This document shows, one piece after another, positions 1,900-32,233 of a stretch of DNA of 40,000 bases. The notes below the pieces were generated by a model, which saw only the letters and a program-made list of their open reading frames with translations, ran no database searches and had not been told where the DNA came from. Source of the stretch: Nitrococcus mobilis (GTDB lineage: Bacteria > Pseudomonadota > Gammaproteobacteria > Nitrococcales > Nitrococcaceae); contig JAGFJL010000047.1 in assembly GCA_024102725.1 (NCBI GenBank), positions 1 through 40,000 of the forward strand. The letters run 5' to 3'. Each line of letters begins with the position of its first letter. Positions within the stretch are counted from its first letter, which is position 1. The position numbers were made by a program, and so were the translations under genes.

Positions 1900-2002
1900 A
1901 GAGCAAATTCCAGCCACGAAAGAAGCGCTCGATCGCTGGAATGCTTTGAACGCACTGACGATAAAAGAGACGTAGGAAAAAGGCCGTGGAGATCCATCTG
2001 TA

Positions 2003-6197: not shown

Positions 6198-6900
6198 AGC
6201 ACCCGATCCAGATTCGCTGGAGCGCCTGGAATTGTTGTCCGGGCAAATACAGCGTGCCAAGGACCAGCACCGATTCGGCGACGCGCTAGATGCGGCGGTG
6301 CGCGCCGTCGATGATGCCGAGAGTGTAATCTCGCAATTTGAAAAACTCGCCGGATTTTCGGGGTTGGTTAACGGCTTTCTCGATCCATCGGACCGGCAGC
6401 ATTGCCTTGTCCTTCTGACGCGAGTGCGAACCCTGGGGCAGCAGCTTCCCCAGGTGTCCGACACTGCGACGTTGCAGGATGGGACAACCAAGGTTTCGCA
6501 ATTGCCGAGTCAGGTCGAGCAGGCCGATGCGATCATAAACCGCGGCTGGAAGGCAAAGATCGACCAGGCATTCGCTGCAACCGGTGAACTCGGCGGTGTC
6601 TTGCGGGAGATTCCCGAAACCCGGCAACTGGGCTCGGAAATGGAGGCGATCGCACTCCAGGCAGGGCAGCTCAAGACAGATTTGGAGGACGCTGAAAGAA
6701 GCATAGCCCGATTTAAGGCCCTGGTCGCCGAACGGGAAGGCACCACGGACAGCTTGACAAATTTGGGGGCGGGGAAAGAGGTGGTGGACTTCCTGTTCGC
6801 CGTGGCGAACCAGTCGGCCACGCTTGAAACCGTAACCGCAGAGGTCCGGAGTTGGCTTGATGAGCGGAATGCGCTTGCACGCTTCAAGGTGGGGTTATAG
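6190..6900 (+). CDS. hypothetical helical/coiled-coil protein, last gene of the + strand operon
   Basis: 236-aa ORF. Its start overlaps the upstream stop by 8 nt, with the same ATGGCTGA junction as at 2889. Ala/Leu/Glu/Gln-rich helical composition. No enzymatic motif. Confidence 0.6.
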   Translation: MAEAPDPDSLERLELLSGQIQRAKDQHRFGDALDAAVRAVDDAESVISQFEKLAGFSGLVNGFLDPSDRQHCLVLLTRVRTLGQQLPQVSDTATLQDGTTKVSQLPSQVEQADAIINRGWKAKIDQAFAATGELGGVLREIPETRQLGSEMEAIALQAGQLKTDLEDAERSIARFKALVAEREGTTDSLTNLGAGKEVVDFLFAVANQSATLETVTAEVRSWLDERNALARFKVGL

Positions 6901-13000: not shown

Positions 13001-13443
13001 TGCCGGATGGCAGGGCTGAGCCCGCTGCCCCGCTGGCTGCCCAGGTAGAGCACGTCCGGCGGGGAGGGCACATAGCGCGCCGATTTGGACTGGATGGCAT
13101 CGAGCAGATTGCCGATGGCGTTCAGCGTAAAGGCGTTGACCAGAATTCGGCAGGGCAGTCCAGCCGCCCGGCGGGCCTGCAGGTAGCCCAGCGCCATCCA
13201 AGCCAGCACGTAGGTCTTGCCGGTGCCAGGCGGCCCCTGGATAAGGCCGACGCGTTGCTCGGCCAGCCTGTTCCAGGCGGTGATTTGGGCCTGGCGCAAG
13301 GGGAAATCACCTTTCTCGTCGATCTGCGGTTGCGCGAAGTTCTCCAGTCCCTGGCGCCAGAGTCGGTGGTCGTCCTCGGGCAGGGTGCGGGCAAAGACCT
13401 GGGGCGCCCTCAGAAACTGGAGTATGTCCGCTCGCACGCTCAT
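7009..13443 (-). CDS. 2144-aa double helicase: N-terminal SF1 (Upf1/Dna2-like) helicase, winged-helix-like middle, SF2 DEAD/DEAH helicase, C-terminal DUF1998/MrfA-type Cys cluster
   Basis: - SF1 part: GPPGTGKT (aa 70-77), CIDEASQM (aa 202-209), VAGDDKQLPPV, SPHRAQ, VDKIQGKERD, NVAITRARTKLILI.
- SF2 part: ADTGAGKT (aa 885-892), ADEIH (aa 1071-1075), MSATLG (aa 1111-1116), QRKGRGGR (aa 1336-1343). A CPDCDG...CTRC zinc-ribbon insert sits at aa 989-1015.
- C-terminus: CVDGCQGC, about aa 2110-2117.
- The 6.4-kb ORF is uninterrupted. Its start overlaps the upstream nuclease stop (ATGA). Confidence 0.9.
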   Translation of the reverse strand: MSVRADILQFLRAPQVFARTLPEDDHRLWRQGLENFAQPQIDEKGDFPLRQAQITAWNRLAEQRVGLIQGPPGTGKTYVLAWMALGYLQARRAAGLPCRILVNAFTLNAIGNLLDAIQSKSARYVPSPPDVLYLGSQRGSGLSPAIRHISFRQREAAAEAWDALQTEHLIVGCSVWALNKLLNAGQPAVTDGPTSPLFHLVCIDEASQMVVSNGLMALAGLAPGGRVLVAGDDKQLPPVRTVHTQEIEGRRLGGSLYDFLKSAEVAEYPLDETFRLNAPLTCFPESKFYPGRYRPTDASEHQRLQLAGDWADGLADWERLALDPEYPLCVLLHDGPPAGTSNPFEVAVAARLTRRLHAAMTTGEPQDATPSATVWQERLAMVSPHRAQNAAIRAALANDPAGNGAVVETVDKIQGKERDAIIASYTVSDPEFALAEADFIFSVERLNVAITRARTKLILIVSRRLLDVVPPDENTLDAAQILRELVFDSAEVGTVHITDNTGRKVPVNVRVRGFTEDGELPPLIDAPDEEPAEALPEFTRELEELLAAIREIAIKNPYGTAADYEIKKKLYLSSPVPFGQLRDLVRLGHIQLNQKHGRFGPFWTAKPLDPPRPPFPGDAQTVRDRLEEVTTHVRRGRYASFYENVIRHRFVWMDTAGDDRVWPVIEAMAREGLVEIKEVNGSATVEWLEQAPTPEDVEESPKEPLSDKDFEVLNHLEDKEVQRINFGIYEGWTSLPDLATSLQTSRGQVSDALRRLQSHGHLAMDEEGRIRSRMAELAREVRYVKQRFAVGDADRRPYLVRSLKVEVRDRDKPVRDRSLSTVMQEIQDGVGENMTARHVLHGLEAMLRKHWNHDDPPLAGFQVRALSTIFPAWLGRSDDNTFVITADTGAGKTEAACLPLIAGAAYDRLQGIQGTRAVLVYPRVRLAANQAQRITGYLASLANVGGLPALTLGLQNWQVPGQFETIPEYLSGIWTTAPGGALRFPFFACPDCDGDLHLHPGKGHAGADQLACTRCTWAFDGWVGSKLALQQQPPDFFLPVTESLHQWQQNPAYGALFGDIAPHPPPRAILADEIHLYTHIHGAQVGYTLRRLLARSAINGPEQPRPLAIGMSATLGDPARVWGELIGRDPVVELRPEPGERRRNPRGREYFYFVQPEVESRGQDIAGASTSIQSLMCLAHGMRRRTGRDGGYRAIVFLDSIDKLKRLHGDYQDAEEARHLAALRTRLFDDDLGNSQPRRECCGQPATCDRFREGECWYFAATDNAQVTARGRYRPGNALIVSQRPVFAGEKGKVEEMIRSSDIVFTTSSLEVGYDDPDMALVYQHYAPNNLASFIQRKGRGGRGVDDRPVTGVTLSPYSPRDSWYFRRPQRMLDSAHFDVPLNAANYFVRRGQVLATLLDALARHTTVHGRTGLTIVDGRSRLNKQTQQFAEHLVHTIFGAEIYRQLEAESLDNLWRQATDEVSISFSSHMSLRDLRESLPWIAKTLFATANLPALAVHFESERGEARSQDEAINLAFEAATPGNMTRRYGFSLLHWLPPRAGRMPWLSDEVYKVSNGFEIPPLKKGPDALLRELPVEAREEVGPDIHPNVCHPNGVVLETAGRMLGAGWTAHWYYDAEKRAVQRIDTSEPDNGLKVHPKSRGNLRAFTYVEAQPDSGHAISIRGIERFGERFEAYIGGRMEGNQTGLALTSLTWGADVELRLMDPDQPDIPITQTFIHPRSSKTLLHGYRVQTEGVRLRLNSAYLTDFIQTEVERQREHPDGRWHRGQMFRYLIGSQARAAGINAYEANRAADLLFSAAGHPELRDRLRGLVRRWDSQTLRNLLQQTFTDMLAYHPLLSERRVDRLADSLGNRKFQHVFAQALEAVSSEDQFAAYLRSVLVHSFSIRLKQAFVLHGRGDDRQVLIHAKLPIQFGADAEDVITVAENGAHGDGTTRMFVDNLEAVLADWSSGGLADCPNAREDAIIEQAFQKIHRHEEWRSLDPRNPEQMAGLAAELGLGSAVEEGSMQSVLRLLYGTESVGTQRFDLYSLHGEITAIDARLRDTMAREASQWELVSAVVRAAADSAPATPRLSELISAYQGLDEASQEESLGAEARLADQVYRLSARLCVDGCQGCLHTGSDLMPAALAEAVVSLRLLERLTA

Positions 13444-15737
13444 TCGGGTGCCTCACCGAGGAACGCCATGAAGTTCGCCGCCCTCCCGGTGGTGAAGTCC
13501 TTAAAGGTGCGGTCAAGGAACCAGCCGGCTTCTCCGGTTTCCCGGAGCAGGCGCTGAAAGTCATCGCCCTCGTAAAGCGTGGCAGGGACGTTGACCAGCA
13601 GGGTGCCACTATTGGCGAAGTCGGGCCGCTCGGGGGCGATTCGTGCCTCGAAGTTGGGCCAAAACTGGGGGTTGAGCCGGATGTCCGGATTGTCGTCGGT
13701 GAGGATGAGGTCGAAATTATTGGATGACAACTCGCTCTCCCGGCTTTCCGGCGGCACGGAAAACAGCATGCCGTATTGGCCCCAATTGGCCTTCCAATGC
13801 CTCAAAAGGGTCATCTGGGCGATGCAGCGGGCCCGATCGCGCCGCTGGCTGAAGGGCTGGGCCAGGGAGACCAGGGCCTCCAGCATGCCGGTGCGGTTCT
13901 CCAGGAGTTCGAAGGCGTGAAGCAGGTCCAGGTCCACGGCGTTGAGCGGGTCCAGGGTCTGCTGAAAGCGGAAGGGCCGCTTGTTCAGGCGCAGGAAGGC
14001 ATAGTCACCGCCCTGTTTAAGGGCAGTGGCGTTCTTGTGCATCAGCCACTCGGCCAGCGCGCGCATGGCATCCAGGCGGGCGATGACATCCTGGCGTACC
14101 GACTCGGGCTCGATGCGCCCGTCCCGCAGATCGCGACATACGTCGATGGACAGGCGGGACGAGAAGGGGCGGCGGAACGGAGGGTCAGGGGCGTAGGCAG
14201 GCGAAAGGGCTGGTTCGGTGTTCGCCAAGGCGCCGGTCACCTGGCGCAGGTCGTAGGCCACCATGACCGGCAATGCATAGACCTGCTCAACTACGCTGCG
14301 CAGGGCGGTGGCCGGAAGATGATGGATTCCGCGGAATTCCGGCTCGGGGACCACGTCATCGGGAGGAAACATGCGGATCAGGTGGAGCAGGCCAGTTCGT
14401 ACCAGCGGATTTTCCAGGTGGCGCGCCACTGCGTACTGCAAGCCGGCGGCCTCCGAAGGCTCATATAAAAAAATGTGGGCCTGGATCTGCTCCGCGGGTG
14501 AATCCTCGTGGGCGGTGTTGTGGCGGTCGATGGCCGCCAGGTCCGTGACCAGTTGGCCCAGGACCTTGCACAGCGCTTCGCTCTCCCGTTCCGGGCTTCC
14601 AGCGGGCAAGACCTCGACCAGGTATTCGTTGTTCCCACCCTCACTACGCAGGTACCCGAGCGTGATGAGGTTGTCCTCCACCGGATCGACATCGACGACG
14701 AGGTAGAGGCCCACGTCCACTCGCGGCGGCATCAGGTAACTGGCGACACCCGGTATGCGCTGGACTTCGCCGGCGACCAGTGCCTGGGCACGCCGCGTCA
14801 GCAGTTCAGCCCGTCGGCGCAGCGCCCAACTGCCGGCGCTAGAGGCCCGCAGCCCTCGGGCTTCAGCGAGCTTGCCAACTTTGTCAGTGCCCAGCCGATC
14901 TAATGCCCGTTTGGCCTCGTGAGAGACCCCGGCAACCGCCGACACATCCCGTTCCGCAGGCAGAATCCTTTCGTCAATGGACTGGCTGCAATGGCGCAGA
15001 TACTCACATTGTTCGCACTTGAAATATATATGGAAGAAGGTGTTGTCCCAGGTGGACGACACGATACTCTCCGCAATTACGGGTATCTCGTTGGACAAAA
15101 AGTCCGCAACCAGGCGTTGGTAGGGCTCTAGCCGGAATTCCTCGGCGCGGTAGAGGCCATCCTCGCCCTTGCTGCCTGGTGGCAAGCACCAGATCTGGCC
15201 GGTTCGATCCAAGACGCCCGGTGCCCTGAGGGCGGCGAGGGTTGATTGAAGCACCAGGCTGTAAAAAGCCACTTGTGCTTTGTGGAAGGTTGTAGCGCGT
15301 TGGGTGGCTTTGATGTCGATGATCTGAAAGCGGGGTTCGGAGTCGCCCCGCTCAATCCGAACCAGGTCCGGTAGAGCTCGTCTGACCGTGACGTCTTTGG
15401 AGAGTCCGAGTTGTTCTCGCAGTTGACTGTGGGACTCGAGGACCAGCTGGTGTGCATAGGTTTCTGATCGGCGGCCCTTAAGGAACGCCGTGGAGAGATC
15501 TTGCGAGAGATAGTCCTCTCCAACGGCTGGGCCCAAAACGCCGACTTCCGCGGCCAAGCGTGATACCACCTTCCGTTCGAACTTGTTGCCCAGTTGGGCC
15601 CAGGCCGGAATCACTAGATCCCGCAGGATCGGGATTTCATCGCGCTCTTTCCCGGTGAAGGTATCGTACCGGGTCTTTCGTGGGCAGCGATACTGAAACC
15701 AGGATTTGACCGTAGAAGCGCTGAAGGCGAGGGGCAT
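13440..15737 (-). CDS. RecB/Cas4-like PD-(D/E)xK nuclease with Fe-S cysteine signature and a C-terminal RNase-H-like region (TM0106-type architecture, inferred)
   Basis: C18 (YRCPRK), D124 (PDLV), D141-I-K143 (IIDIKAT), Q155xxxY159 (KAQVAFY), then C241-x2-C244-x5-C250 (CEQCEYLRHC). This is the Cas4/AddB pattern of one N-terminal Cys plus CX2CX5C. Downstream are an HhH-like VAGVSHEAKRALDRLG and a block LYLVVDVDPVEDNLITLGYL ... HIFLYEPSEAAGL, which resembles the RNase-H-fold domain of TM0106-type RecB-like nucleases. Confidence 0.75.
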   Translation of the reverse strand: MPLAFSASTVKSWFQYRCPRKTRYDTFTGKERDEIPILRDLVIPAWAQLGNKFERKVVSRLAAEVGVLGPAVGEDYLSQDLSTAFLKGRRSETYAHQLVLESHSQLREQLGLSKDVTVRRALPDLVRIERGDSEPRFQIIDIKATQRATTFHKAQVAFYSLVLQSTLAALRAPGVLDRTGQIWCLPPGSKGEDGLYRAEEFRLEPYQRLVADFLSNEIPVIAESIVSSTWDNTFFHIYFKCEQCEYLRHCSQSIDERILPAERDVSAVAGVSHEAKRALDRLGTDKVGKLAEARGLRASSAGSWALRRRAELLTRRAQALVAGEVQRIPGVASYLMPPRVDVGLYLVVDVDPVEDNLITLGYLRSEGGNNEYLVEVLPAGSPERESEALCKVLGQLVTDLAAIDRHNTAHEDSPAEQIQAHIFLYEPSEAAGLQYAVARHLENPLVRTGLLHLIRMFPPDDVVPEPEFRGIHHLPATALRSVVEQVYALPVMVAYDLRQVTGALANTEPALSPAYAPDPPFRRPFSSRLSIDVCRDLRDGRIEPESVRQDVIARLDAMRALAEWLMHKNATALKQGGDYAFLRLNKRPFRFQQTLDPLNAVDLDLLHAFELLENRTGMLEALVSLAQPFSQRRDRARCIAQMTLLRHWKANWGQYGMLFSVPPESRESELSSNNFDLILTDDNPDIRLNPQFWPNFEARIAPERPDFANSGTLLVNVPATLYEGDDFQRLLRETGEAGWFLDRTFKDFTTGRAANFMAFLGEAPE

Positions 15738-15839: not shown

Positions 15840-16745
15840 TGACCTGCCCCCGCAATTAGGACCGCGTTCCAGTTAGCTCAGTCCGCTCAGTCAACTACCT
15901 CCCAGGGGCAAGATCCCAGGGAGAATTCCTGCCGCCAGTAGGCGGCAAATTCGGCCGGCACCAAATAACCCAGCGCCGAATGCGGTCGCTTTTCATTGTA
16001 ATCACGTCGCTAGGCCGCGATCTCGGCTCGCGCATGGGCGAGACTCGTAAACCAGTGCTCGTTCAAGCACTCATCCCGTATAAGTTGCACTCCCCGCTCA
16101 TAGGCCCATTGGTCGAGTGCCTTACCCGTGAACTCCGGCCCCTGGTCGGTTCGGATCGCTTTGGGCACACCCCGGAACCGTACCGCCCGTTCCAGAGAGC
16201 GCACCACGTAGGCGCCCGGGATGCTGCAATCGACCACAATGTCGAGTGCCTCCTTGGTGAAGTCATCGGGGCGCTCGGCAGCTCCAGAGGTTCACGATTC
16301 ACCGCCACACCCTGGCGCCGCCGACGCTTGCGCACCGCCAAGCCTTGCTGCTGATAGTGGCGCAGCACCTTCTTATGGTTGACCACCACGCCTTCGCGCC
16401 GTAGCAGCGCGTGAATCCGCCGATACCCGAATCGCCGCCGCTGTTGCGCCAGATCCATGATCCGGCCCCGTAGCGCTTCGTCTGAGGCGCTGGACATGGC
16501 CTAATAGCGCAACACTGACCTCGAGATCCCCACAAGCCCGCATGCACTTCGCTCCGAGACGCCGGTGCGCTCGCACATCTCCGCCACCGCCTCACGCTTT
16601 GGCTTGTGGAGTCAGTACTTTCCCGACAGCGCTGCCTTCAGTGCCTCGTTATCGAGCATCGACTCGGCCAGCAACTTCTTCAGCCGGGCGTTCTCCGCCT
16701 CCAACGATTTGAGCCGCCGGCGCAGATTGCGCGGCGGGCCGGTAT
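15840..16745 (-). mobile_element. IS3-family (IS407-group-like) element, 3' two-thirds: orfA C-terminus, decayed orfB, outer inverted repeat
   Basis: The outer end reads TGACCTGCCCCCGCAATTAGG from 15840 inward; IS407-group ends as I recall them start TGACCTGCCCCC. The orfA tail is RRLKSLEAENARLKKLLAESMLDNEALKAALSGKY (16612-16745). Its 5' portion is found separately at 19500-19592. Confidence 0.75.
15891..16611 (-). pseudogene. IS3-family orfB (DDE/rve transposase) pseudogene
   Basis: Reads KREAVAEMCERTGVSERSACGLVGISRSVLRY*AMSSASDEALRGRIMDLAQQRRRFGYRRIHALLRREG, with an in-frame TAG. A frame change and loss of the NQxWxxD...DDFT segment follow near 16260-16290. Then DCSIPGAYVVRSLERAVRFRGVPKAIRTDQGPEFTG and AEIAA*RRDYNEKRPHSALGYLVPAEF, where TAG sits where W is expected. 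Confidence 0.8.
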
Positions 16746-16978
16746 ATCGGAGCAGACGCTGTACCGCTGGCCGGATGGGTTTCTCAGCGCGGGCAAGCAG
16801 GCGATGAACGGCCGTGCCATGCGCAACGAGCAAGCCAAGGCGATCGAACGTCTGCTGGGCGAGCTTGCTGAGCGCAACCAGGTCATCGGCGAGCTCACGG
16901 TCGCTAATCGCATTTTAAAAAACCCCCGAAGGCCGGCGGCCTGCCCGGAGAAAGAGAAACTCGGGCCTGCGCTAGACT
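16735..16978 (+). pseudogene. 5'-truncated HTH transposase orfA fragment of a second element (element X)
   Basis: The + strand reads AQIARRAGISEQTLYRWPDGFLSAGKQAMNG...AIERLLGELAERNQVIGELTVANRILKN. This is an HTH followed by a leucine-zipper-like segment, typical of IS3-like orfA proteins. There is no start codon and no upstream IR. It abuts the antisense IS407-like orfA at about 16740. Confidence 0.55.
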
Positions 16979-17155
16979 GAGCGCACTCCGAGGGGAGCGG
17001 CCGTTGACTTTTTGGTGGACCACCCCGTTTAAAAACGTGGCCCAGGGACTGTAGCGGACCCGATAGTGGTGACGCGCCTGTGCGATCCCGGTTAGGAAAA
17101 TGATCCATTCCGCCATCCCGCCCTTCGGAGGATTTTTGCTCGAAGGAGGACAGTG

Positions 17156-17940
17156 ATGGCCAAGACGAAGCGAGGGCGAGGGGCGGTTCGCACGACGAAC
17201 CTGGCGGTGGTGCATCCGCATGCGGCAGGGCTCGATGTCGGTGCCCGATTCCATGTCGCGGCGGTCGCGCCGGAGCGGGCCGAAGAGCCGGTGAAGAGCT
17301 TTGGGAGTTTCACCGACGATCTGCATGCGCTCGTCTCTTGGCTGCAGGGGGCCGGCGTCACGAGCGTGGCGATGGAATCGACCGGAGTGTACTGGATCCC
17401 GGTCTACGAGATTCTCGAAGCGAAGGGATTCGAAGTGTTCTTGGCCAACGCGCGGGGACGCAAAGGCGGTGCCTGGGCGGAAGAGCGACGTGAACGACGC
17501 GCAGTGGCTCCAGCGGCTGCATCAGTACGGACTGCTGCGCCCGAGCTTCCGGCCGAGCCAGGAGATTGTCGCCCTGCGGGCGTACCTGCGCCATCGCGAG
17601 CGGCTGCTCGATTATGCGGGCGCGCACATCCAGCATATTCAGAAAGCGCTCACGCAGATGAACCTCCAACTTCACCACGTCGTGACCGACATCACCGGTG
17701 CAACGGGCATACGCATCATTCGTGACATCGTGGCCGGAGAGCGTGACCCGCAGCGCCTCGCCCGGCATCGAGATACCCGCTGCAAGGCTTCGCTCGAGAC
17801 CATCACCAAGGCGCTGGTGGGGAACTATCAGCCCGAGCATGTCTTTGCGCTGACCCAGTCTTTGGAGCTCTACGACTTCTACCAGCGGCAGGTCGCAAGC
17901 TGTGATGTGGCCATCGGGCGGGTGATGGCGGGATTGGTGT
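17156..17940 (+). pseudogene. IS110-family (DEDD) transposase, frameshifted and 3'-truncated by IS insertion
   Basis: RBS GAAGGAGGA lies 5 nt before the ATG at 17156. Motifs: AAGLDVGARFHVA, MESTGVYWIPVYEILEAKGFEVFLANAR, then in the next frame DAKAVPGRKSDVNDAQWLQRLHQYGLLRPSF. One extra G in the run at 17454-17457 explains the frame shift. The reading frame ends at the IRL of the IS3 element at 17941. Confidence 0.8.
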
Positions 17941-17990
17941 TGCCCCGATTTGGTGGAGCCTTCAAAGTGCTCAAATGGAGGGCATCCACT

Positions 17991-18332
17991 ATGACGCAAT
18001 CCAAATTTGCTATGCGCTATGCGCTATGCGCTATGCGCTATGCGCCGGAGTTTCGCCAGCAGATGGTCGAGCTGGCGCGCGCCGGTCGCAAGCCCCCGGA
18101 GCTGGCCAAGGAATTCGGCTGTACCGTTTGGTCGATCAAGCGTTGGCTCAAGCAGGCCGAGCGGGATGCTGGCCGCGGCGATGGCGGGCTGACGAGGGCG
18201 GAACGCGAGGAGCTCAGCCGGTTGCGCCGCGAGAATCGCCAGCTGCGCCTTGAGCGGGAAATCCTCTCAAAAGCCGCGGCCTGGTTCGCTCAGGAGACCG
18301 CGCCGAATTCGAAGCGCTCTTCGGGTTCGTGA
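17991..18332 (+). CDS. IS3-family transposase orfA (HTH plus leucine zipper)
   Basis: MTQSKF...YAPEFRQQMVELARAGRKPPELAKEFGCTVWSIKRWLKQAERDAG...REELSRLRRENRQLRLEREILSKAAAWFAQE. A heptamer repeat lies in codons 7-19. Confidence 0.8.
   Translation: MTQSKFAMRYALCAMRYAPEFRQQMVELARAGRKPPELAKEFGCTVWSIKRWLKQAERDAGRGDGGLTRAEREELSRLRRENRQLRLEREILSKAAAWFAQETAPNSKRSSGS
18011..18045 (+). repeat. perfect heptanucleotide tandem repeat (TATGCGC) x5 inside the 5' end of IS3 orfA
   Basis: Direct reading: TATGCGC at 18011, 18018, 18025, 18032 and 18039, preceded by a partial GC. The unit length is not a multiple of 3. Confidence 0.95.
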
Positions 18333-19191
18333 GAGCGAACCGGGCCTGTTATCCGGTGGCGGTGATGTGCCGGGTGCTGAAGGTCTCCGTGAGCGGTTAC
18401 TACGCTTGGCGAAAGCGCCCGCACTCCAGGCAAGCCGCGCAGGACAGGGCGCTGAGCGCCAGGATCGTGGCCATTTACCGCCACTCCGATGGCACCTATG
18501 GGTGTCCACGGATCTACCAGCAGCTGCGCGCCGAGGGCGTGCAGGTGGGACACAACCGCGTCGCACGTCTGATGCGCGTGGCGGGACTGCGCGGGGTGAG
18601 TCGCCGGCGGCGTTTTGTCACGACGACGCAGCGCGCCTCCATGGCGGCGCGTCCGGCACCGGATCTGGTACGACGCGACTTCCGTGCCGAAGCGCCCAAC
18701 CGGCTGTGGGTCGCCGATGTAAGCCATATCCCGACGTGGGAGGGGTTCTTGTATCTGGCGGTCGTTCTCGATGTGTTTAGTCGCCGTATCGTCGGCTGGG
18801 CGATGGCGGGGCACCTGCGCACCGAGCTCGTGCTCGCGGCCTTGGAGATGGCCTTTGCACAGCGTCGTCCCGAGGCCGTCATCCATCATTCGGATCAGGG
18901 TGCGCAATACACCTCGATTGCTTTCGGCCACCGCTGCAAGGCGCTCGGGGTGCGTCCCTCCATGGGTCGGTCGGAGACTGTTTCGACAACGCCATGGCCG
19001 AGAGCTTCTTTGCCAGTCTCGAATGCGAGCTATTGGAAAGGCACCATTTCCGCACCCGCGAGCAAGCGCGCTCGGCCGTGTTCGAATACATCGAAGGTTG
19101 GTACAACCGCCGTCGCTTGCATTCTGGGCTTGGCTATCTGTCACCTTCCACCTTCGAGCGGAGGTACTGTACACAGACAACACCACCTTAG
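18329..19191 (+). pseudogene. IS3-family transposase orfB (rve/DDE), frameshifted
   Basis: The frame is -1 relative to orfA. Motifs: NRLWVADVSHIPTWEGFLYLAVVLDVFSRRIVGWAM and HHSDQGAQYTS. After VRPSMGRS the frame is lost; it should read GDCFDNAMAESFF. The sequence MAESFFASLECELLERHHF...WYNRRRLHSGLGYLSPSTFE continues in another frame. One missing G at about 18973-18975 would restore the frame. Confidence 0.8.
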
Positions 19192-19220
19192 AACTTCCAA
19201 CTCTCCACGAAATCGGGGTA

Positions 19221-19449
19221 AGTCTACATGTTCCGCTCTCGTTACAACGAGATCAGGCCGCACTGGGCGCTCGTGCCGGTTGACGGCGCCGATCCGGTGA
19301 CACCGCAGGCCGTCTACGTTCATGGCCACGCCGTACAACTCCCGAAGTGGCAAGGTTGGGCGAAGGCCGCAAGGGCGAAACTACGCGAGATGATCGACGG
19401 TGCGCACCTGCCGCTGAGTGCTGTTGAGGAAATCGCCGGAGCGTCATGA
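19221..19449 (+). pseudogene. C-terminal fragment of an rve-type (DDE) transposase, probably the 3' end of element X
   Basis: FRSRYNEIRPHWALVPVDGADPVTPQAVYVHG... is the YNxxRPHxAL signature of integrase-core transposases. It begins directly at the IRR of the IS3 element and has no catalytic core upstream. Confidence 0.6.
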
Positions 19450-19499
19450 GCACTCACACAAACCCAGAACGGTCGTGTCCGGTTGATTTCGGAGCCAAG

Positions 19500-19592
19500 A
19501 CATCTTCGGAAAAACGCTTCTTCTTCATGTCCGTCTCCTCGATCAGACGGACTGTACTAACTTTCCGCTGGTCTAGAAATCGGGGGCAGGTA
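19500..19592 (-). mobile_element. detached 5' end of the IS407-like element: terminal IR, RBS hairpin, first ~9 codons of orfA
   Basis: - The reverse complement of 19581-19592 is TACCTGCCCCCG. This matches the TGACCTGCCCCCG end at 15840 apart from one missing base.
- Minus strand: GTCCGTCT-gatcgagg-AGACGGAC, then ATG (19528) AAG AAG AAG CGT TTT TCC GAA GAT, giving MKKKRFSED. This is the usual IS407-group orfA start (MKK(K)RFxEE).
- Homology stops near 19500. Confidence 0.6.
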
Positions 19593-19606: not shown

Positions 19607-20668
19607 TCACACGGAGCATAGGCAATTCTCCCGTAGTTGTGCAAGCAACAGTTGTGTTAACTGCATGTAGTCCTTCGGGATGTTCTGAATATCATTCCAT
19701 GGTCGAGTGAGCCCACTACCAAATTCCCAGACCCCTCTGGTCCAGGCCGTATGCGGCTCCAAGCATTTCAGGTAAGGGGTGAATTCCTCTTCGTTAAATG
19801 CGCCAATACGTGCGTGGAGGTACTCCATGACATAGCCCATACTAATTATCCCAGCGCCATGAACAAGCCGGGAGGTTTTAGGCTTGTGGCCTTTCCATGC
19901 ATAATCGTAGACGTTTTGCACAGCAGCAAAGAAATTGCTGATCAACCGCAACCCCTTTTCGAAACCGTCTTCGTCGCGAGAGAACTCTCGTAGAGCCCCG
20001 TCGGAAGCAGAGTTCATGATTACTCTTTGGATTACAGTGTCCTGAATAATACCTTGTGGGTTGGTGTGTTGCTTAATTTGACCGCGCAGCGATGACGCAT
20101 CGCTATAATTCAAGTATTCAACCATTGCGGCCGCCGCCGCGCGAGATCCCAGACGGTCTGGTAGGTCAGTGACCCCCGGAAGGAGCTCATAAATAAGTTG
20201 CTTCGGTAAAGGTCGTGTGTTGTTAATCAAGATGAACTGCTTCCGAAGTTCATCTTGATCTCTGCACAGCAAAGCGGAAACCACCAGTTGAAATTTTGTT
20301 TCGATGTCCATTAACGCGGACAAACGCTGCTGTCCGTCAACGACAAATCCAGCCGCGTCGTCCAGGTCGACTGTCAGGGTCGCAACATCGATGGCTCCTT
20401 GCTTTATCAGCTTCGCGCCACGTGTGAAAGCCACAACCACAGAATTTGGCAAGAGAGCCTCGCGCCTCGACAGGTACTCGCGAATTTCCTTAATGTGACT
20501 TGCGACCTGCGGGCGCTGGAAGCCACTAAGATGACCTTTCTCATCGCGGCCAACCCGATCTATTTTTGCAAAGCGCAGTATCTCGCCCGCAGTAGCGCAA
20601 AAGCAGCAGACTTGTACGGAGTCACCCTGGTTAGGAACCAGTGCTGTATAGCGCAGGATATTGGCCAT
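19607..20668 (-). CDS. DGQHR-domain (DndB/DpdB-like) protein, copy downstream of dpdA
   Basis: Motif blocks: RDEKGHLSGFQRPQVASHIKEIREYL, LLPNSVVVAF, VVDGQQRLSAL (the DGQHR signature with Q in place of H), FILINNTRPLPKQLIYELLPGV, SRLVHGAGIISMGYVM, GVWEF and WNDIQNIPK. It is collinear with the protein at 21947-23140. Confidence 0.8.
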   Translation of the reverse strand: MANILRYTALVPNQGDSVQVCCFCATAGEILRFAKIDRVGRDEKGHLSGFQRPQVASHIKEIREYLSRREALLPNSVVVAFTRGAKLIKQGAIDVATLTVDLDDAAGFVVDGQQRLSALMDIETKFQLVVSALLCRDQDELRKQFILINNTRPLPKQLIYELLPGVTDLPDRLGSRAAAAAMVEYLNYSDASSLRGQIKQHTNPQGIIQDTVIQRVIMNSASDGALREFSRDEDGFEKGLRLISNFFAAVQNVYDYAWKGHKPKTSRLVHGAGIISMGYVMEYLHARIGAFNEEEFTPYLKCLEPHTAWTRGVWEFGSGLTRPWNDIQNIPKDYMQLTQLLLAQLRENCLCSV

Positions 20669-21950
20669 TAGCGAGGACCTGCTTGAGGTATTTGTGAAAA
20701 ACGTAGAGATTATGAATTCCGCGGCGCTTGTTCCGGTTGCTTGAACGGAACAGTATCGTCTCGACGCCTGCCTGACGGCAGACGTTGCATTCGCACCTCT
20801 CCCACTGTCGTGCCTCCAAAGTCCTCTGGTACTGCACTCGTGCTTTTGTCAGCTTCGCGTCAACAGTGGCGCGACTGGAATTGCTGCCGTCAAGCAGTGG
20901 CTCTATGTAGCGCAAAACCGCCTCCAGGGTTGGACTGAGACTCATTTCCCTTGAGGCATAGGCTCTAACTGAGGTGAGAGCGTCGGTTTCCAGTTCGAGC
21001 AAGTGCTCCAACCGTCTGCGACCTGACCTAACCTGCCGTTGAAGAACAAGATTCTCGTGCACCTGCGGCACCCGCACCGCGCTGTAATACTCCATCTCCC
21101 CGTGCGCATTTAGAAAATAGTAGTTTCTTGAACCATCCTTAAAGGCCCGGATGAGAGGAGAACTGGTGTCGAAGCTATCGATTCGATATGGGGCAAACTC
21201 GCTGAGTTGGTCCGCCTTCGCAAACCCAAGCAGGTGCAGGGACACATTCGGGTATCGCCCCACCACGTTCATCACAGCGCCTAGCGCCAGGTGGATGCTC
21301 TTGGTATTAAGAGGAGCCAATCCGCCGACTGCGATGTAGCGATATCCCATATGCACAAGGCGGCGCGCTGCTTCCGCCATACTGCCCGGCGACCAACCTT
21401 GAACAACGCCGATTGGCTGGAACGTCGCATGGTGCCTGCGGTGCTCAAGCAAAAATGACTCAGCCAATTCGAGGGTCAAATCAAACCGTCGGTGAGCTTC
21501 CGGTGTGCCGCCGGCAAGGCCGGCTACGCTATGGCGTTCGAAATCGAAAACTATGTGGTCAACGGAGAAACCGTGAGTGAATCCTGCCTCTTCGTAGAAT
21601 GCAACCGTATCTTCGGGCGTGTATGGTGGATGTTCGAGGCTAGCGTATGAGAAGGCACCACAGTCTCCAAAAATTGGTATGTCTTGGAACCGAGGGTCCT
21701 CAAGACGTAGAAAACGGCGTGCTCCAACCCGGCGAAAACGCATCGCTTGGGATTCAGTATACTTACCCTTTATCACATGGTCGCCAACCGTTGTTCTTGA
21801 AACTAGGACTCCGTCGTAAGGCAAGCGGTTATGTAATTCGTGGGGGTAAACATCGTCCCAATACGGTTTGCGACCAGGTGCGTTCTCATCGTTGATGAAG
21901 TCGTAGTTTGGGTCGACGTAGTCTAAACTATCCGCGAAAATAAATTTCAC
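20631..21950 (-). CDS. dpdA: DpdA, DNA-targeting tRNA-guanine-transglycosylase-like enzyme (7-deazaguanine DNA modification)
   Basis: - N-terminus MKFIFADSLDYVDPNYDF.
- FGDCGAFSY aligns with the TGT DSGGFQ active-site motif.
- TGT-type zinc site CECNVC...(23 aa)...H, near the C-terminus.
- GTG start overlaps the upstream DGQHR stop (GTGA).
- Flanked by DGQHR genes, with queC/E/D nearby. Confidence 0.85.
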   Translation of the reverse strand: MKFIFADSLDYVDPNYDFINDENAPGRKPYWDDVYPHELHNRLPYDGVLVSRTTVGDHVIKGKYTESQAMRFRRVGARRFLRLEDPRFQDIPIFGDCGAFSYASLEHPPYTPEDTVAFYEEAGFTHGFSVDHIVFDFERHSVAGLAGGTPEAHRRFDLTLELAESFLLEHRRHHATFQPIGVVQGWSPGSMAEAARRLVHMGYRYIAVGGLAPLNTKSIHLALGAVMNVVGRYPNVSLHLLGFAKADQLSEFAPYRIDSFDTSSPLIRAFKDGSRNYYFLNAHGEMEYYSAVRVPQVHENLVLQRQVRSGRRRLEHLLELETDALTSVRAYASREMSLSPTLEAVLRYIEPLLDGSNSSRATVDAKLTKARVQYQRTLEARQWERCECNVCRQAGVETILFRSSNRNKRRGIHNLYVFHKYLKQVLANGQYPALYSTGS

Positions 21951-23140
21951 GCACGCTCCCGTTTTGACGCTTCGTAGTCTAGCTTAATAAGTTGTTCTGA
22001 TAGTGCTTTCACATGTTTGCTAACGTTTTGTATTTGGTTCCATTCCATTCCCAAGTCTTCCCACACGCCGCTGATCCAGCAGCATTTCGGCTCGATACGC
22101 TTGAGCGCGAATCGTATCTCCCTTTCCTGATCGTCGCTTCCTTGAGTTCGCACGATAATGCGGTCCATTAGGGTGCCCATTGCCTTGATGCCAGCCGAGT
22201 GAGTTAAGCGACTGTGGGACGGGGGCAGAGCCCACGCCTCTAGAAACGTATCTCGCACGGCAGACCAGTACGTGAGCAGTGTGTTATACATAGCCGTTGT
22301 ATCGGTGCGCCCCTCACCAACTCCTTTGAATTGAGCGAGTGCGCCTAACGGGCTACCGATGCTGCGCCGGATAACATCGATTAAGGCCGTGTCGACGATG
22401 AAATGATCAGTCGTACCGTGGCCGTCGGTCGATGCACGGCGAATACGCTCGTAGAACGGTGAACGGGGGTCGCGATTCAGTATGTTGCACAACTCGCTAG
22501 GGAGTCGGCGAACTGCCAAGTCCCTAGGCAGATGGGTATCCACCTCAGGCAGGAGTTCGTTAATCAGTCGCGTTGGCAGCGGTTTGGCCTTGTTGACAAG
22601 AATGAACTGCTCACGCTGAGTCTCAAGATCGCCAGCAATAAATGCTACGACCGGCACCGGGAGACCGGTAGATTTACTCTTTGATAGCGCGAGCGAGCGC
22701 TGCTGCCCGTCTACGATCCAAGCAACACGGGTACCCTCCTCTCGAAGTGGAATCATCAAGGTACCGGCATGAGCGATGGGGTTAAGTCCATCCGGTTCCC
22801 GCCCCCGTGTCTGTTTAAATTCCACTTCCGGCGAGAGCGCCAAGATGATGGCGTTCGGGAACAAGACGTCGCCCGCGTCGAGATATTCAACTATGTTGTT
22901 GACGTGATTACGTATCTCTTTGCGCTGGAAGCCCTGTAACGAGGTTTTCTCGTCCCGATGGATGCGGCTGATATCTGCAATACGGACGATGTCCTCACCG
23001 GGCATGAAGAAGGCGAAGACTTCTATGCCCCTACCTTGACTCGTCCGAAGGGCACGAACGATGAGCGTGTCTTCGCCGTTTACCACGAGCGTGCCTTCTT
23101 CACTTCCCGAAACAACCGGGCAAAGCGCCCTTGTTCGCAA
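21947..23140 (-). CDS. dpdB: DGQHR-domain protein, DpdB-like, copy upstream of and translationally coupled to dpdA
   Basis: Motif blocks: RDEKTSLQGFQRKEIRNHVNNIVEYL, LFPNAIILAL, IVDGQQRSLAL, FILVNKAKPLPTRLINELLPEV, SRLTHSAGIKAMGTLM, GVWED and WNQIQNVSK. The start is ambiguous: ATG at 23140, or GTG at 23086, which overlaps the upstream TAA. I cannot decide which of the two DGQHR genes is the DpdB orthologue. Confidence 0.8.
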   Translation of the reverse strand: MRTRALCPVVSGSEEGTLVVNGEDTLIVRALRTSQGRGIEVFAFFMPGEDIVRIADISRIHRDEKTSLQGFQRKEIRNHVNNIVEYLDAGDVLFPNAIILALSPEVEFKQTRGREPDGLNPIAHAGTLMIPLREEGTRVAWIVDGQQRSLALSKSKSTGLPVPVVAFIAGDLETQREQFILVNKAKPLPTRLINELLPEVDTHLPRDLAVRRLPSELCNILNRDPRSPFYERIRRASTDGHGTTDHFIVDTALIDVIRRSIGSPLGALAQFKGVGEGRTDTTAMYNTLLTYWSAVRDTFLEAWALPPSHSRLTHSAGIKAMGTLMDRIIVRTQGSDDQEREIRFALKRIEPKCCWISGVWEDLGMEWNQIQNVSKHVKALSEQLIKLDYEASKRERA

Positions 23141-24063
23141 GCAACGCCCTCGCGATCCCGCAATAGACGCAGCATCTGAGAACTCGCACCGCCCGCATCA
23201 TGCCAGAATTTTTGAATTAGCCTGCGGACGTCTTCATCCCTAACTCGGTTTCGCCTGATCGCGTCCGGTGGGCGCATCTCCTCAAGCACTGCTGCAACCG
23301 AACTTGCGTGCACTGAAGCCGGGGCGTCGGGATCCCGAGACCAGATTTCCTCTACGAAATGCCGCGCCGCCCTTGGTGCGAAGTCCGTGCGGGTACCTGG
23401 TAATGGACTATCTGGACCATCAAACCGGCCGTCGTATGGCATAGTTACATTAATAAGCTCGGCAGGAATTAACCGACTTCCACTAATAACTCGCAGACGT
23501 TGCACGCACCAGCCCGGTAATGTTGCCAACTCCTCGTGGACTAACCCCAGGTATCTGCCAGACAACGCCACTACGACGGTCGCGGCGCTGTGGTCATGAA
23601 GCAGTCGCCGCAAGGGTTTAGGCCGTCCACGAACTTGGTTGATTTCATGCCACCAAAGACCAAGTTGCCAGCAGCCGGATCCCGACTGGGATCGATACTC
23701 AGCCAAATCGGCAAGTGTAAAGTCATAGGGCGGTACGCGGTCATCCGGTTCGATTAGCCCGAGGCCGGCAGATACCACATAGCAAGGGGCCTCGAATTTT
23801 TCTGCCGTTGATTGCGCCTCTTTGAATCCGCGGCCGCAATAAAGCTCCTTCGCTATTACATGCTGTAAGTGGCCCTGCGCCGCGGACCACCATTCCATCG
23901 CAAAGCGCCGCATCGAACCATTTACCCTATCCGGCGCGCTGAGACATGTACCCACGCCTCGCCGCTTGCGGTTTGTGCAGTTCGTAACCAGCACCAGCCT
24001 GAAGGACCTATCTAGAGAGTTATTGACCACAAACCTGTTGCTTCGCGTGAATAAACGTAGCAC
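23080..24063 (-). CDS. uncharacterised 327-aa protein, first gene of the dpd operon; DpdC candidate by position only
   Basis: GTG start at 24063. Conserved-looking N-terminal pattern: LVLVTNCTNRKR ... ELYCGRGFKEA ... YVVSAGLGLIEPDDRVPPYDFT. Co-directional with and overlapping the DGQHR gene. I do not recognise the family with certainty. Confidence 0.5.
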   Translation of the reverse strand: MLRLFTRSNRFVVNNSLDRSFRLVLVTNCTNRKRRGVGTCLSAPDRVNGSMRRFAMEWWSAAQGHLQHVIAKELYCGRGFKEAQSTAEKFEAPCYVVSAGLGLIEPDDRVPPYDFTLADLAEYRSQSGSGCWQLGLWWHEINQVRGRPKPLRRLLHDHSAATVVVALSGRYLGLVHEELATLPGWCVQRLRVISGSRLIPAELINVTMPYDGRFDGPDSPLPGTRTDFAPRAARHFVEEIWSRDPDAPASVHASSVAAVLEEMRPPDAIRRNRVRDEDVRRLIQKFWHDAGGASSQMLRLLRDREGVACEQGRFARLFREVKKARSW

Positions 24064-24168
24064 AACATACTATGCATGGTCCGCATTAATTGCACGCTCT
24101 TAGTAGTCTACTCTTATACATTATTGTAGGCTGATGGTATGAGACCTGCTGTCAAAGGAGGTCGACTA
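24064..24168. promoter_or_regulatory. AT-rich divergent intergenic region between the dpd operon and queC-queE-queD
   Basis: A 105-bp gap between divergent starts, locally AT-rich (ATACTATGCATGG, TTAATTGCA, TATACATTATTGTAGG). A strong RBS AAAGGAGG lies 7 nt before the queC ATG at 24169. No specific -35/-10 pair could be assigned with confidence. Confidence 0.35.
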
Positions 24169-24435
24169 ATGAGCCATGCTGAAGGCGGGGCCTTGGTCCT
24201 ATTTTCGGGTGGGCAGGACTCGACCACCTGCCTCGCTTGGGCGCTTGATCGGTTTCAGCATATCGAAACCGTGGGTTACACGTACGGTCAGCGCCATGAG
24301 GTAGAGATGCATGCCGTACCTGTTACCTGGGCGAGCGCTGCTATCGCCATGATTGGGGCTACGGCTGTGAGGAGTGCCCAGCGTGCCAACTGCGGGCCAA
24401 GGGCTGGCGGGGCGCTACCAGGCGGCAAAACATGA
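24169..24435 (+). pseudogene. queC: queC (7-cyano-7-deazaguanine synthase) remnant with a large internal deletion
   Basis: - The N-terminus [39 protein letters not shown] carries the SGGxDS PP-loop and the YGQRH motif.
- About 50 codons later, and in a different frame (from 24321), comes the QueC C-terminal zinc motif [29 protein letters not shown].
- Only about 270 nt are present where about 690 nt are expected. Confidence 0.85.
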
Positions 24436-25065
24436 CCTACAGCGTCAAGCATATCTTCTACACGTTGCAAGCCGAGGGTGCGCAGACAGGCCGGCCAGTG
24501 GTGTTCTGCCGATTCGCGGGGTGCAATCTCTGGTCGGGGCTGGAACGGGGTCGCGCGAATGCGCGGTGCCGGTTCTGCGATACCGATTTCGTCGGCACCG
24601 ATGGTGCCGGTGGCGGCAAATTCGATACAGCCGAATCGTTGGCCGCTGCGGTCGCGCCATGCTGGTCGCCGGGCAATGGGCCCGCGCTATGCAGTTTGCA
24701 GCGCTGGCGAACCGCTGCTGCAACTCGACCGCCCGCTGATCGATGCGCTGCACGCCGAAGGATTAGATGTGGCGATTGAAACCAATGGCATTCTGCCCGT
24801 ACCACCGAGTATGGACTGGGTGTGCGTCAGCCCCAAGGCACCCAATGCCCTTATGGTTGAATCCGGCGACGAACTCAAGGTGGTTTATCCGCAGCCAGGC
24901 CCCGAAATGGACCGCCTCGCACACCTCCCATTCCGTTACCGCTTTGTGCAGACGATGGATGGTCAACACATCGTCGAGAATACGAGAGCGGCGCTTGAGT
25001 TCTGTCTCGCAAACCCTGTTTCGCGGCTGGGCCTCCAAACTCACAAGCAACTCGGAATCGAATGA
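24432..25065 (+). pseudogene. queE: queE (7-carboxy-7-deazaguanine synthase, radical SAM), frameshifted
   Basis: - N-terminal frame: [58 protein letters not shown]. This is the Burkholderia-type CX14CX2C cluster motif.
- After ...WSPGNGP the homology continues in another frame: [35 protein letters not shown]...LGLQTHKQLGIE.
- A single-base indel at about 24681-24687 explains the shift. Confidence 0.85.
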
Positions 25066-25607
25066 GCGCCTTCAGCATCTCCCGCCGACTCGAGATCGAC
25101 GCCGCTCATCGGATTGCGGGTCACGGTTCCAAGTGCCGATACCTGCACGGCCACCGGTATGTCATCGAGGCTTGCTGTATCAGCGCCTCGCTGCACACAA
25201 ACGGCGCTAAGCGGGGGATGGTGTTGGACTTTGGGTTTCTCAAAGAAGAGATGGCACGCACGATTGATGAGCCCTGCGATCACGGCTTGCTGGTGAGCGT
25301 GGACGATCAGGAACTTCTGGCGATGCTTGCTCCGGTCGGGCGAGCTGATGCGTGGGTTACTGAGCTCGAGCGGGAGGTTCGGCGAGCGGGGCACTGCTCC
25401 GCCATCGATGGGCGTCTCGGCGGGCTGATCTATGTGCTGGATGCACCGCCGACCGCCGAGGTACTCGCACAGCACTGGTTCCAACAGCTAAAGCCCCGAG
25501 TAAATGAGCGCAGTAGCGGTCAAGCACATTTAACGGCGGTTACCGTTTGGGAAACGCCGAATTGCTGGGCTCGGTACGAAGGGCCGGAGGTGGTCCGACA
25601 CAAGTAA
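25062..25607 (+). CDS. queD: QueD, 6-carboxy-5,6,7,8-tetrahydropterin synthase (PTPS family)
   Basis: The start overlaps the queE stop (ATGA). Motifs: FSISRRLEIDAAHRI, KCRYLHGHRY (the CxxxHGH zinc/catalytic motif) and GMVLDFGFLK. The 181-aa ORF is intact. Confidence 0.85.
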   Translation: MSAFSISRRLEIDAAHRIAGHGSKCRYLHGHRYVIEACCISASLHTNGAKRGMVLDFGFLKEEMARTIDEPCDHGLLVSVDDQELLAMLAPVGRADAWVTELEREVRRAGHCSAIDGRLGGLIYVLDAPPTAEVLAQHWFQQLKPRVNERSSGQAHLTAVTVWETPNCWARYEGPEVVRHK

Positions 25608-26028
25608 GGTTAAGCGGATCGCCGTCGCAGTGGACCCCTTTTCTTTATGGGGCTGTCTCTAGCCGGTATTTGTCAACGTAGCCGTGAATCGACCCACCAT
25701 AGCTCGTTCGGATTCAGCACGTGGCTGGCAATTTCCAGCTGATAGGCATCCCGCTCAATGACGATGGCCGGCCACTTCTCGACGGGGCAGGGAGTACGGC
25801 CAGCGCCCCGGTGAGCCGGGCAATCCCTGAAGTTATCCTGTGATGGTTGCCCTCCTTGATCTGATAGCCTGCTCTCTATGCCTTTCCGTCATTCCGGCGT
25901 AAGCGGGACCAAATTCCGTAGGGAACGGATTTGAACTGCCAGAGCTGGACCCCAGCGACTGGACAGGGATCGAAGCCTGCTAAGTGGAATCTTCTGGCTT
26001 AAAGTTCTCGAAAGAGAAGGAGCGGAAG

Positions 26029-26319
26029 ATGACCCGGCGAAAGCGACGTAATCACTCCTCGGCATTCAAGGCGAAGGTGGCACTGGCGGCGTTGAAGGGC
26101 GAGCGCACGCTGGCAGAACTGGCCGAGCAGTTCGACGTTCACCCCAATCAGATCCAGGACTGGAAGCGGCGCCTGGTGGAAGGTGCCGAGGACGTGTTCG
26201 GTGGCAACGCGGTCAAGGCGCAGCACAACGAGAAGGAGGTAGAGAAGCTCCACGCCAAGATCGGGCAGCTGGCGATGGAGAACGATTTTTTGTCCAACGT
26301 GCTCGGGCGCGACCGATGA
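26029..26319 (+). CDS. IS3-family transposase orfA
   Basis: RBS AAGGAG precedes the start. MTRRKRRNHSSAFKAKVALAALKGERTLAELAEQFDVHPNQIQDWKRRL...KLHAKIGQLAMENDFL, an HTH plus leucine zipper. Confidence 0.8.
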   Translation: MTRRKRRNHSSAFKAKVALAALKGERTLAELAEQFDVHPNQIQDWKRRLVEGAEDVFGGNAVKAQHNEKEVEKLHAKIGQLAMENDFLSNVLGRDR

Positions 26320-32100: not shown

Positions 32101-32233
32101 GATCCTGGCTCCAGCGATGCAAGGTGATCAGGCCATGCTAGCCAAGCCAACGGATCACTTGGCCAGGAAACACCCCTTCGTATGGTCACGGTTTGCACGC
32201 CCGTGCCGACGCTCGCCGGGGCACCATGGGTGC

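Follow-up and report, generated by a model that had tools for sequence, protein, structure and literature searches.

In the Dpd (7-deazaguanine) DNA-modification system of Salmonella, DpdA exchanges guanine in DNA for preQ0, and it does so only with ATP hydrolysis by DpdB (PMC10164549). The homodimeric DpdB is ParB-like, contains a DGQQR motif, and has been modelled as a clamp around DNA, and DpdC then turns preQ0-DNA into ADG-DNA (PMC10164549). This system, with its one homodimeric DpdB, is the only Dpd system to have been studied biochemically, and the role of the DpdB ATPase in it is still an open question (PMC10164549). Here we describe a dpd island in a 40,000-nucleotide (nt) stretch of DNA from Nitrococcus mobilis (assembly GCA_024102725.1, contig JAGFJL010000047.1, positions 1 to 40,000 of the forward strand; hereafter, the window) in which two dpdB paralogues, called B1 and B2 below, flank dpdA. 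We find that the order B1-dpdA-B2 is the standard layout of a widespread Dpd subtype and not a peculiarity of this genome; clusters with only one dpdB are characteristic of the Salmonella/Enterobacter type. So far the two-DpdB subtype has been annotated and counted in a census rather than described in terms of mechanism.

The genes for the dpdC-like protein, B1, DpdA, and B2 form a single string of overlapping genes on the minus strand (24063-19607), and all four are intact. Lengths are given in amino acids (aa).

23080..24063, minus strand: dpdC equivalent (327 aa, DUF6884 family), which opens the modification operon.
21947..23140, minus strand: dpdB1, the upstream DpdB paralogue; the longest open reading frame (ORF) encodes 397 aa, and the probable GTG start at 23086 gives 379 aa.
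20631..21950, minus strand: dpdA, encoding the DNA-guanine transglycosylase, 439 aa (NCBIfam DpdA, PDB 7UI4).
19607..20668, minus strand: dpdB2, the downstream DpdB paralogue, 353 aa (NCBIfam DpdB, PADLOC).

The initial annotation had described the ORFs on either side of dpdA as collinear DGQHR paralogues that share a list of motifs at about one-third identity, and the comparisons bear this out. The motifs confirmed in the two proteins are GFQR..H, PN, VDGQQR, QFIL(V/I)N..PLP..LI.ELLP, SRL.H.AGI, GVWE, and WN.IQN. BLASTP aligned B1 (397 aa) and B2 (353 aa) at 34% identity over 350 columns (E = 6e-49), and a profile-profile comparison of the two orthologue sets returned a probability of 100% (E = 1e-65) with collinearity across 341 columns. 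Both proteins exceed the cut-off of 300 bits of the NCBIfam DpdB equivalog NF041060, B1 with 455.5 bits (residues 27-384, model positions 2-352) and B2 with 369.6 bits (residues 5-341, model positions 1-352). The PADLOC DpdB model PDLC02811 gave 449.9 bits for B1 and 390.2 bits for B2. The dpdA product scored 505 bits on the NCBIfam DpdA model NF041059 (cut-off, 200) and matched the solved Salmonella Montevideo DpdA structure, PDB 7UI4, over residues 1-426 (E = 1e-86).

The dpdC equivalent, initially left unclear, is by these sequence criteria the DUF6884 gene at 24063-23080. Its product matches Pfam DUF6884 with 40.9 bits (cut-off, 30), scores 279.5 bits on the PADLOC DpdC model PDLC02815 (residues 22-324, model positions 6-308 of 312), and is collinear with DpdC of Enterobacter, which is of the Salmonella type (residues 69-325 versus 20-282, E = 7e-9). 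In relatives, the DUF6884 gene always lies immediately upstream of B1.

The gene overlaps reported earlier could be read directly in the sequence. The stop of B1 and the start of dpdA share GTGA at 21950-21947, and the 3' end of dpdA overlaps the start of dpdB2 by 38 nt (20668-20631). The extent first given for B1 stands as an ORF but probably not as a gene, with GTG at 23086 rather than TTG at 23140 as the probable true start. The GTG is favored because it is preceded by an AAGAAGG Shine-Dalgarno-like run, overlaps the dpdC stop codon, and yields a protein of 379 aa, which matches the 370 to 380 aa of B1 orthologues. The DGQQR motif is encoded at nt 22697-22711 in B1 (residue 126 in the 379-aa numbering) and at nt 20324-20338 in B2 (residue 111).

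Two other family identities were considered for the DpdB copies. Both proteins match the Pfam DndB domain, but only through their N-terminal part. On the dnd-associated DGQHR model TIGR04172, they scored 56.7 (B1) and 36.4 (B2) bits against a cut-off of 450, and no dnd genes were found among the ORFs of the window, so a dnd-type DndB identity was rejected. An SspE-like nuclease identity was rejected because neither copy has the EHxxP (EH..P) nicking motif. AlphaFold2 models of the two proteins (pLDDT of 78 for B1 and 87 for B2) have collinear secondary structure. A Foldseek search of the PDB with the B1 model returned CDP-bound ParB dimers, PadC, sulfiredoxin, and SspE as top matches, all of them non-significant (E = 0.03-1), and the B2 model returned noise only. 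A sequence search of the PDB with DpdB found no relatives among the solved structures.

The distribution of the B1-dpdA-B2 order was assessed in metagenomes, plasmids, and genome contigs. The metagenomes were scanned with a DpdA alignment, and the best 80 matches, with DpdA 46-57% identical to that of the window, were retained, so that this sample is biased to the window's DpdA clade. In a synteny tally made on tblastn coordinates, a B1-type gene was found directly upstream of dpdA in 63/63 loci with enough flank and a B2-type gene directly downstream in 63/63. Where both flanks could be assessed, every locus (52/52) had the order B1-dpdA-B2, and the junction between B1 and dpdA is a 4-nt overlap in 44 loci. 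A scan of genome contigs with one DpdA sequence returned one locus. An Aliarcobacter metagenome-assembled genome (MAG; locus L001) has the DUF6884 gene, a B1-type gene, dpdA, and a B2-type gene in the order seen in the window, as do contigs of Accumulibacter and of a Pseudomonadales MAG with close B2 homologues. A short contig from the two-DpdB DpdA clade (L060, 1-3000) lacks B1; the end of its dpdC abuts dpdA, and a B2-type gene comes next. B1 appears to have been lost here.

Among the plasmids of PLSDB, 16 carry a DpdB-like gene, and nine of these, all alphaproteobacterial, have such genes in two places each. Plasmids of Skermanella and Bradyrhizobium in RefSeq are annotated dbpB-dpdA-dbpB, with both flanking products named 'DGQHR domain-containing protein DpdB'. 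The gene symbol 'dbpB' in these records (NZ_CP086112.1, NZ_CP083722.1, and NZ_CP086409.1) is apparently a transposed 'dpdB'. One Enterobacter plasmid (L006) has the Salmonella-type order, with a hypothetical protein (DpdC), dpdA, and dpdB followed by divergent dpdD-dpdK-dpdJ. On the six other PLSDB plasmids, of which three were inspected (Euzebya, Nonomuraea, and one of the four Variovorax records), no dpdA is annotated near the DpdB-like gene. On the Variovorax plasmids (L009, 8929-10496), a B2-type DpdB gene lies beside a gene for a 157-aa full DUF6884 protein and a type I-E CRISPR-Cas system, with no dpdA annotated nearby.

The initial annotation had taken two DGQHR genes around dpdA for a departure from the usual single-dpdB cluster. 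With the arrangement present in all 52 assessable loci, in other phyla, and on nine plasmids, this view does not stand. The arrangement is common, and it is already documented only in the form of annotation and a census number. That census, from GATOR-GC in 2025, counted 801 extra dpdB copies in 2335 dpd islands and offered no interpretation (PMC12235509). Our literature searches, whose reach did not extend to the founding Thiaville 2016 and Yuan 2018 papers, found no second DpdB copy named or discussed. Some loci have a third DGQHR gene. It is an extra inverted B2-type copy upstream of dpdC in L088 (2723-3772, minus strand) and L046 (2079-2846, minus strand), and a distant gene, about 20% identical and a few kilobases away, in L001 (11168-12058, minus strand), L041, L068, and L069.

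The comparisons show that B1 and B2 are old DpdB clades, each conserved in its own right. Among 149 full-length sequences from the loci, mean identity is 55% within B1, 52% within B2, and 32% between the types (maximum, 38%), and the single DpdB of Enterobacter is 37% identical to B1 and to B2 alike. More than 120 orthologues of the window's B1 were found at 59-76% identity and more than 120 of its B2 at 54-64%. A profile search of 1.84 billion cluster representatives returned 235 DpdB-like clusters at E ≤ 1e-30. In a neighbor-joining tree of 105 full-length cluster representatives plus references, 22 of the 105 group with B1 and 8 with B2. Together, the census count of 801 extra copies in 2335 islands (PMC12235509) and the 22 of 105 representatives that are B1-type make two-DpdB islands a large share of Dpd diversity. 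Bootstrap support is 90% for the B2 group and 58% for B1 plus four near relatives. The three alternative branching orders among B1, B2, and the Salmonella-type single DpdB were recovered in 40, 33, and 26 of 100 bootstraps.

The initial annotation had allowed that one copy might lack necessary residues and be decaying, which the conservation data contradict. Both window ORFs are full length relative to their orthologues, and the DGQQR motif is invariant in 46 B1 and 49 B2 orthologues. Columns conserved at 90% or more number 107/365 in B1 and 89/365 in B2, with 53 common to both, and the blocks that the two types share include GFQR..H, PN, VDGQQR, QF.L.N, ELLP, SRL.H..G, W..G.W, and WN. For the closer pairs, dN/dS is about 0.09 for B1, 0.08 for B2, 0.08 for DpdA, and 0.19 for DpdC; these values are rough because dS is largely saturated. 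B1 and B2 are as strongly constrained as DpdA. Single-type DpdBs have 69 conserved positions, of which 47 are retained in B1 and 51 in B2. The two sets of losses differ in part: the hairpin around Enterobacter residues 85-95 is shortened in B2, and B1 is changed at F79, F131, and G278. Net charge and isoelectric point separate the types only slightly (mean pI of 9.1 for B1 versus 8.2 for B2). Neither protein appears to be a pseudo-enzyme or the product of a decaying gene; both look functional.

The relationships among the four modification proteins were examined by covariation, calculated as partial correlations of pairwise distances over the 52 loci that have all four genes and assessed with a Mantel test. 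The strongest partial correlations were between B2 and DpdA (0.56, Mantel p = 0.001) and between B1 and B2 (0.52, Mantel p = 0.001), followed by B2 and DpdC (0.26) and by B1 and DpdC (0.18), while that between B1 and DpdA was not significant (0.01). Linkage or recombination alone does not explain this covariation, because B1 and dpdA are adjacent yet uncorrelated and B1 and B2 are non-adjacent yet correlated. In this indirect test, the pattern is that expected if B2 were to contact DpdA and B1 were to contact B2.

Gene fusions provide a second view of these relationships. DpdC and B1 occur as single proteins of about 690 aa in L002/L003, L014, L015, and representative P0121. DpdA-DpdB fusions (P0136, P0151, P0154, P0164, P0178, and P0207) all fall outside the B1 clade, and that of P0207 carries a phage-type PF23859 DpdA. 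Short DUF6884-DpdB fusions are found in P0148, P0183, and P0227, and in P0254 the order B-A-B is read through in one ORF. By its place downstream of dpdA, which is also that of the single-copy dpdB, B2 corresponds to the canonical dpdB, and B1 is the inserted extra gene, between dpdC and dpdA.

We propose that an old duplication gave rise to two copies that would have divided the work of the single DpdB between them by subfunctionalization. B1 and B2 would work jointly, with a ParB-like B1:B2 heteromeric clamp as the most likely form. B2, which holds the canonical dpdB position and covaries with DpdA, would be the DpdA-facing subunit, and B1, which is translationally coupled to DpdC and fused to it in some lineages, would be the DpdC-facing subunit. 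We infer such a heteromeric ATPase, with B2 facing DpdA and B1 facing DpdC, and put its chances of being correct at about even. A heteromeric DpdB pair had been suggested in the initial annotation, and the covariation of B1 with B2 over 52 loci lends it some support. A more tentative form of the proposal, on which we would lean toward doubt, is that B1 and B2 make an obligate heterodimeric clamp whose B2 half would engage DpdA and whose B1 half would tether DpdC, with insertion and ADG conversion coupled on one DNA-loaded complex.

Several observations weigh against a joint B1:B2 machine. Because L060 carries dpdC-dpdA-B2 without B1, B1 may be dispensable. The partial correlation between B1 and DpdC is just 0.18, weaker than the fusions would suggest, and the Mantel p-values are optimistic because shared history confounds the distances and rate shifts may be common to paralogues of one fold. 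In the deep branching, no arrangement of B1, B2, and the single-type DpdB is a clear bootstrap winner (40, 33, and 26 of 100). In vitro, Salmonella DpdC converts preQ0-DNA to ADG-DNA when neither DpdA nor DpdB is present, and a stable complex of DpdA with DpdB was not seen in that system (PMC10164549).

Alternatively, the two copies could form separate homodimeric machines with no contact between B1 and B2, in which B2 would serve DpdA as in Salmonella and B1 would serve DpdC by bringing it to DNA or moving it along DNA for the conversion of preQ0 to ADG. The occurrence of DpdC-B1 fusions in at least three diverged lineages and of the short DUF6884-DpdB fusions P0148, P0183, and P0227 is consistent with this arrangement, as are the position of every DpdA-DpdB fusion outside the B1 clade, the retention of dpdA and B2 in the B1-less L060, the homodimeric state of Salmonella DpdB (PMC10164549), and the Variovorax plasmids that have a DpdB gene and a DUF6884 gene without dpdA. 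However, the residual covariation of B1 is with B2 (0.52) and not with DpdC (0.18), the DpdB that is paired with DUF6884 in Variovorax is B2-type and not B1-type, and Salmonella DpdC has no need of DpdB in vitro. On this balance, separate homodimers seem rather unlikely to us. It is quite improbable that one copy stands outside the enzyme as a DndB-like DNA-binding regulator of operon expression or modification level, a possibility raised by the Pfam DndB domain matched by both proteins, by the role of DndB in the phosphorothioation system as a regulator and not a core enzyme (cited in PMC5699537), and by the more basic B1 (mean pI of 9.1 versus 8.2 for B2). Both copies keep residues conserved in the catalytic single-type DpdB and are under constraint equal to that on DpdA; the dnd-associated DGQHR scores of 56.7 and 36.4 bits fall far below 450, with no dnd genes nearby; and covariation with the other DpdB is not what one would expect of a promoter-binding regulator. 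Simple redundancy, with the second copy decaying or without a distinct role, is hardly credible. Decay is indeed seen elsewhere in the island, in a queC deletion, a queE frameshift, and insertion sequence (IS) insertions, but the two 32%-identical clades are each conserved across phyla and co-occur in 52/52 loci with dN/dS below 0.1, and both window ORFs are full length. The decaying-duplicate reading was rejected on these conservation data.

The remaining features of the island lie on either side of the modification operon.

15900..19588, no strand assigned: nested IS3-family and IS110-family fragments that separate dpdB2 from the nuclease gene downstream, with an approximate left boundary.
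24139..25607, plus strand: preQ0-synthesis genes (queC remnant, queE, and queD), divergent from the modification operon.
7009..15737, minus strand: putative restriction-side genes (765-aa nuclease, 15737-13440; 2144-aa DpdJ, 13443-7009), downstream of the IS block.
7..6900, plus strand: dpdF, truncated at its 5' end by the window boundary, with dpdG, dpdH, and a weak dpdI-like ORF (PADLOC, NCBIfam).

The preQ0 genes of the window are damaged. When searched by tblastn with QueC, QueE, and QueD of relatives, the queC remnant (24139-24435) proved to have an internal deletion of about residues 45-191, such that residues 5-44 of QueC meet residues 192-226 at 24306-24309 with a change of frame. The queE gene (24432-25065) has a frameshift near 24665-24685, in a G/C-rich stretch, that splits it between frames +3 and +1, and queD (25062-25607) is intact. 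NCBIfam matches to these genes are partial. With local queC and queE damaged, preQ0 would have to be supplied by other genes of the genome. A sequencing error could account for the single queE frameshift; a generally error-ridden assembly is unlikely because ORFs of 2144, 1102, and 765 aa are intact.

In relatives, the que genes are downstream of dpdB2 on the same strand, whereas in the window they are upstream of dpdC and divergent. In L027, L030, L045, L047, and L088, the 1.5-2.4 kb between B2 and the nuclease gene hold some or all of queE, queD, and queC. The initial annotation had suspected that a gene was lost next to the IS after B2. Because the que genes lie on the other side of the operon in the window (24139-25607), no expected gene is missing at the IS, and with B2 full length, gene loss there was rejected. 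An IS end does lie just past the B2 stop, at about 19588 and a distance of about 18 nt instead of the 14 nt first given. It was placed from the terminal ...GAAATCGGGGGCA and from a truncated IS3 orfA ('MKKKRFSEDVL') that starts at 19528 on the minus strand, and a terminal-repeat-like sequence is present at 19559-19585. By NCBIfam matches to ORF fragments, the region from about 15900 to 19588 holds IS3-family fragments lying in both orientations, and within it an IS3 element interrupts a transposase of the IS110 family; neither repeats nor plasmid matches fixed the exact IS boundaries. The IS block stands between B2 and the genes for the nuclease and the helicase, whose transcription it may influence.

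On the restriction side, DpdJ (13443-7009) matches the PADLOC model PDLC02895 (2112 positions) over its full length with 2036 bits. This 2144-aa DpdJ has an extra N-terminal SF1 helicase module (AAA_11/AAA_12, residues about 50-470) ahead of the DEAD/Helicase_C part. The 765-aa protein encoded at 15737-13440 matches Pfam PDDEXK_1 and TIGR03491 and is PD-(D/E)XK/RecB-like; it matches no Dpd model of NCBIfam or PADLOC. The pair of nuclease and long DpdJ follows B2 and the que genes in L027, L030, L045, L047, and L088, and the nuclease type is conserved, always preceding the long-form DpdJ in the subtype (these five loci and L005). This protein may be the nuclease of the two-DpdB subtype, where it would replace DpdK or DpdD. 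PADLOC scores were 444.7 bits for DpdF, 625.1 bits for DpdH, and a weak 24 bits for DpdG. The NCBIfam matches of DpdF, DpdG, and DpdH, and likewise of DpdJ, are all under the equivalog cut-offs, and the dpdI-like ORF matched with E = 0.008 only. DpdD, DpdE, and DpdK were not found in the 40,000-nt window.

The G+C content of the modification operon is 54%, compared to 63-65% in the adjoining DNA, which fits horizontal acquisition. Conjugative-transfer genes at 32099-39112 encode a TraI_2 relaxase/helicase, a TraD/TraG-type coupling protein, DUF4400, and TraE, and because of their presence in the window we consider the dpd island to be carried on an integrative conjugative element or plasmid. 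Further mobile debris occupies 25984-28258, where an IS3-family orfA (25984-26319) and a partial orfB (26316-26792) are followed by group II intron reverse transcriptase fragments in three frames (27364-28258). The IS110 and group II intron reverse transcriptase ORFs of the window are broken.

For this window the outcome is ordinary, in that its island is one more member of the subtype, on a conjugative element and partly degraded. The general question, which is not specific to this locus, is why the subtype keeps two DpdB ATPases, and the fusions and covariation give an answer that can be tested. If the copies do split DpdA-facing and DpdC-facing roles, nature would already have dissected DpdB function in this subtype. 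In annotation, separate names for the B1 and B2 clades could replace the shared DpdB.

The closest described system, that of the Salmonella/Enterobacter type, shares with the window homologous DpdA, DpdB, and DpdC, a DGQQR motif in DpdB without the SspE-type EHxxP motif, and an operon linked to dpdF-J helicase/ATPase genes and preQ0-synthesis genes. It differs in having one dpdB, downstream of dpdA (dpdC-dpdA-dpdB), where the window has two that are 32-37% identical to each other and to the single DpdB. The window DpdC is only 23% identical to that of the Salmonella/Enterobacter type, its DpdJ is the 2144-aa long form, unlike that of this type, and its 765-aa PD-(D/E)XK nuclease occupies the place of dpdD and dpdK in other loci. 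With a single homodimeric DpdB and a free-standing DpdC, the Salmonella system is without the organization of the proposed heterodimeric clamp.

The two-DpdB islands on RefSeq plasmids of Skermanella, Bradyrhizobium, Sinorhizobium, and Agrobacterium have the order dpdC-dpdB-dpdA-dpdB as in the window, with both copies annotated DpdB. The PADLOC Dpd models fit the subtype at full length, and the window differs from these islands in nothing essential; the database sources for them give no statement of distinct clades or of the role of each copy. More distantly, ParB CTPase clamps and SspE/DndB of the ParB/sulfiredoxin superfamily share with the DpdB copies an N-terminal NTPase domain with a GxxR-type motif (DGQQR), and the weak structural matches of the B1 model (ParB, PadC, sulfiredoxin, and SspE; E ≥ 0.03) are the set reported for Salmonella DpdB. 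In contrast to those proteins, the DpdB copies have no nuclease motif, and in place of parS sites or phosphorothioate DNA they have a transglycosylase and DpdC as partners. The eukaryotic tRNA-guanine transglycosylase QTRT1/QTRT2, a 7-deazaguanine-inserting machine built on a heterodimer of paralogues, is comparable by analogy only: there the transglycosylase itself is duplicated, whereas in the window it is the ParB-like ATPase that is duplicated, and the heterodimer is a proposal.

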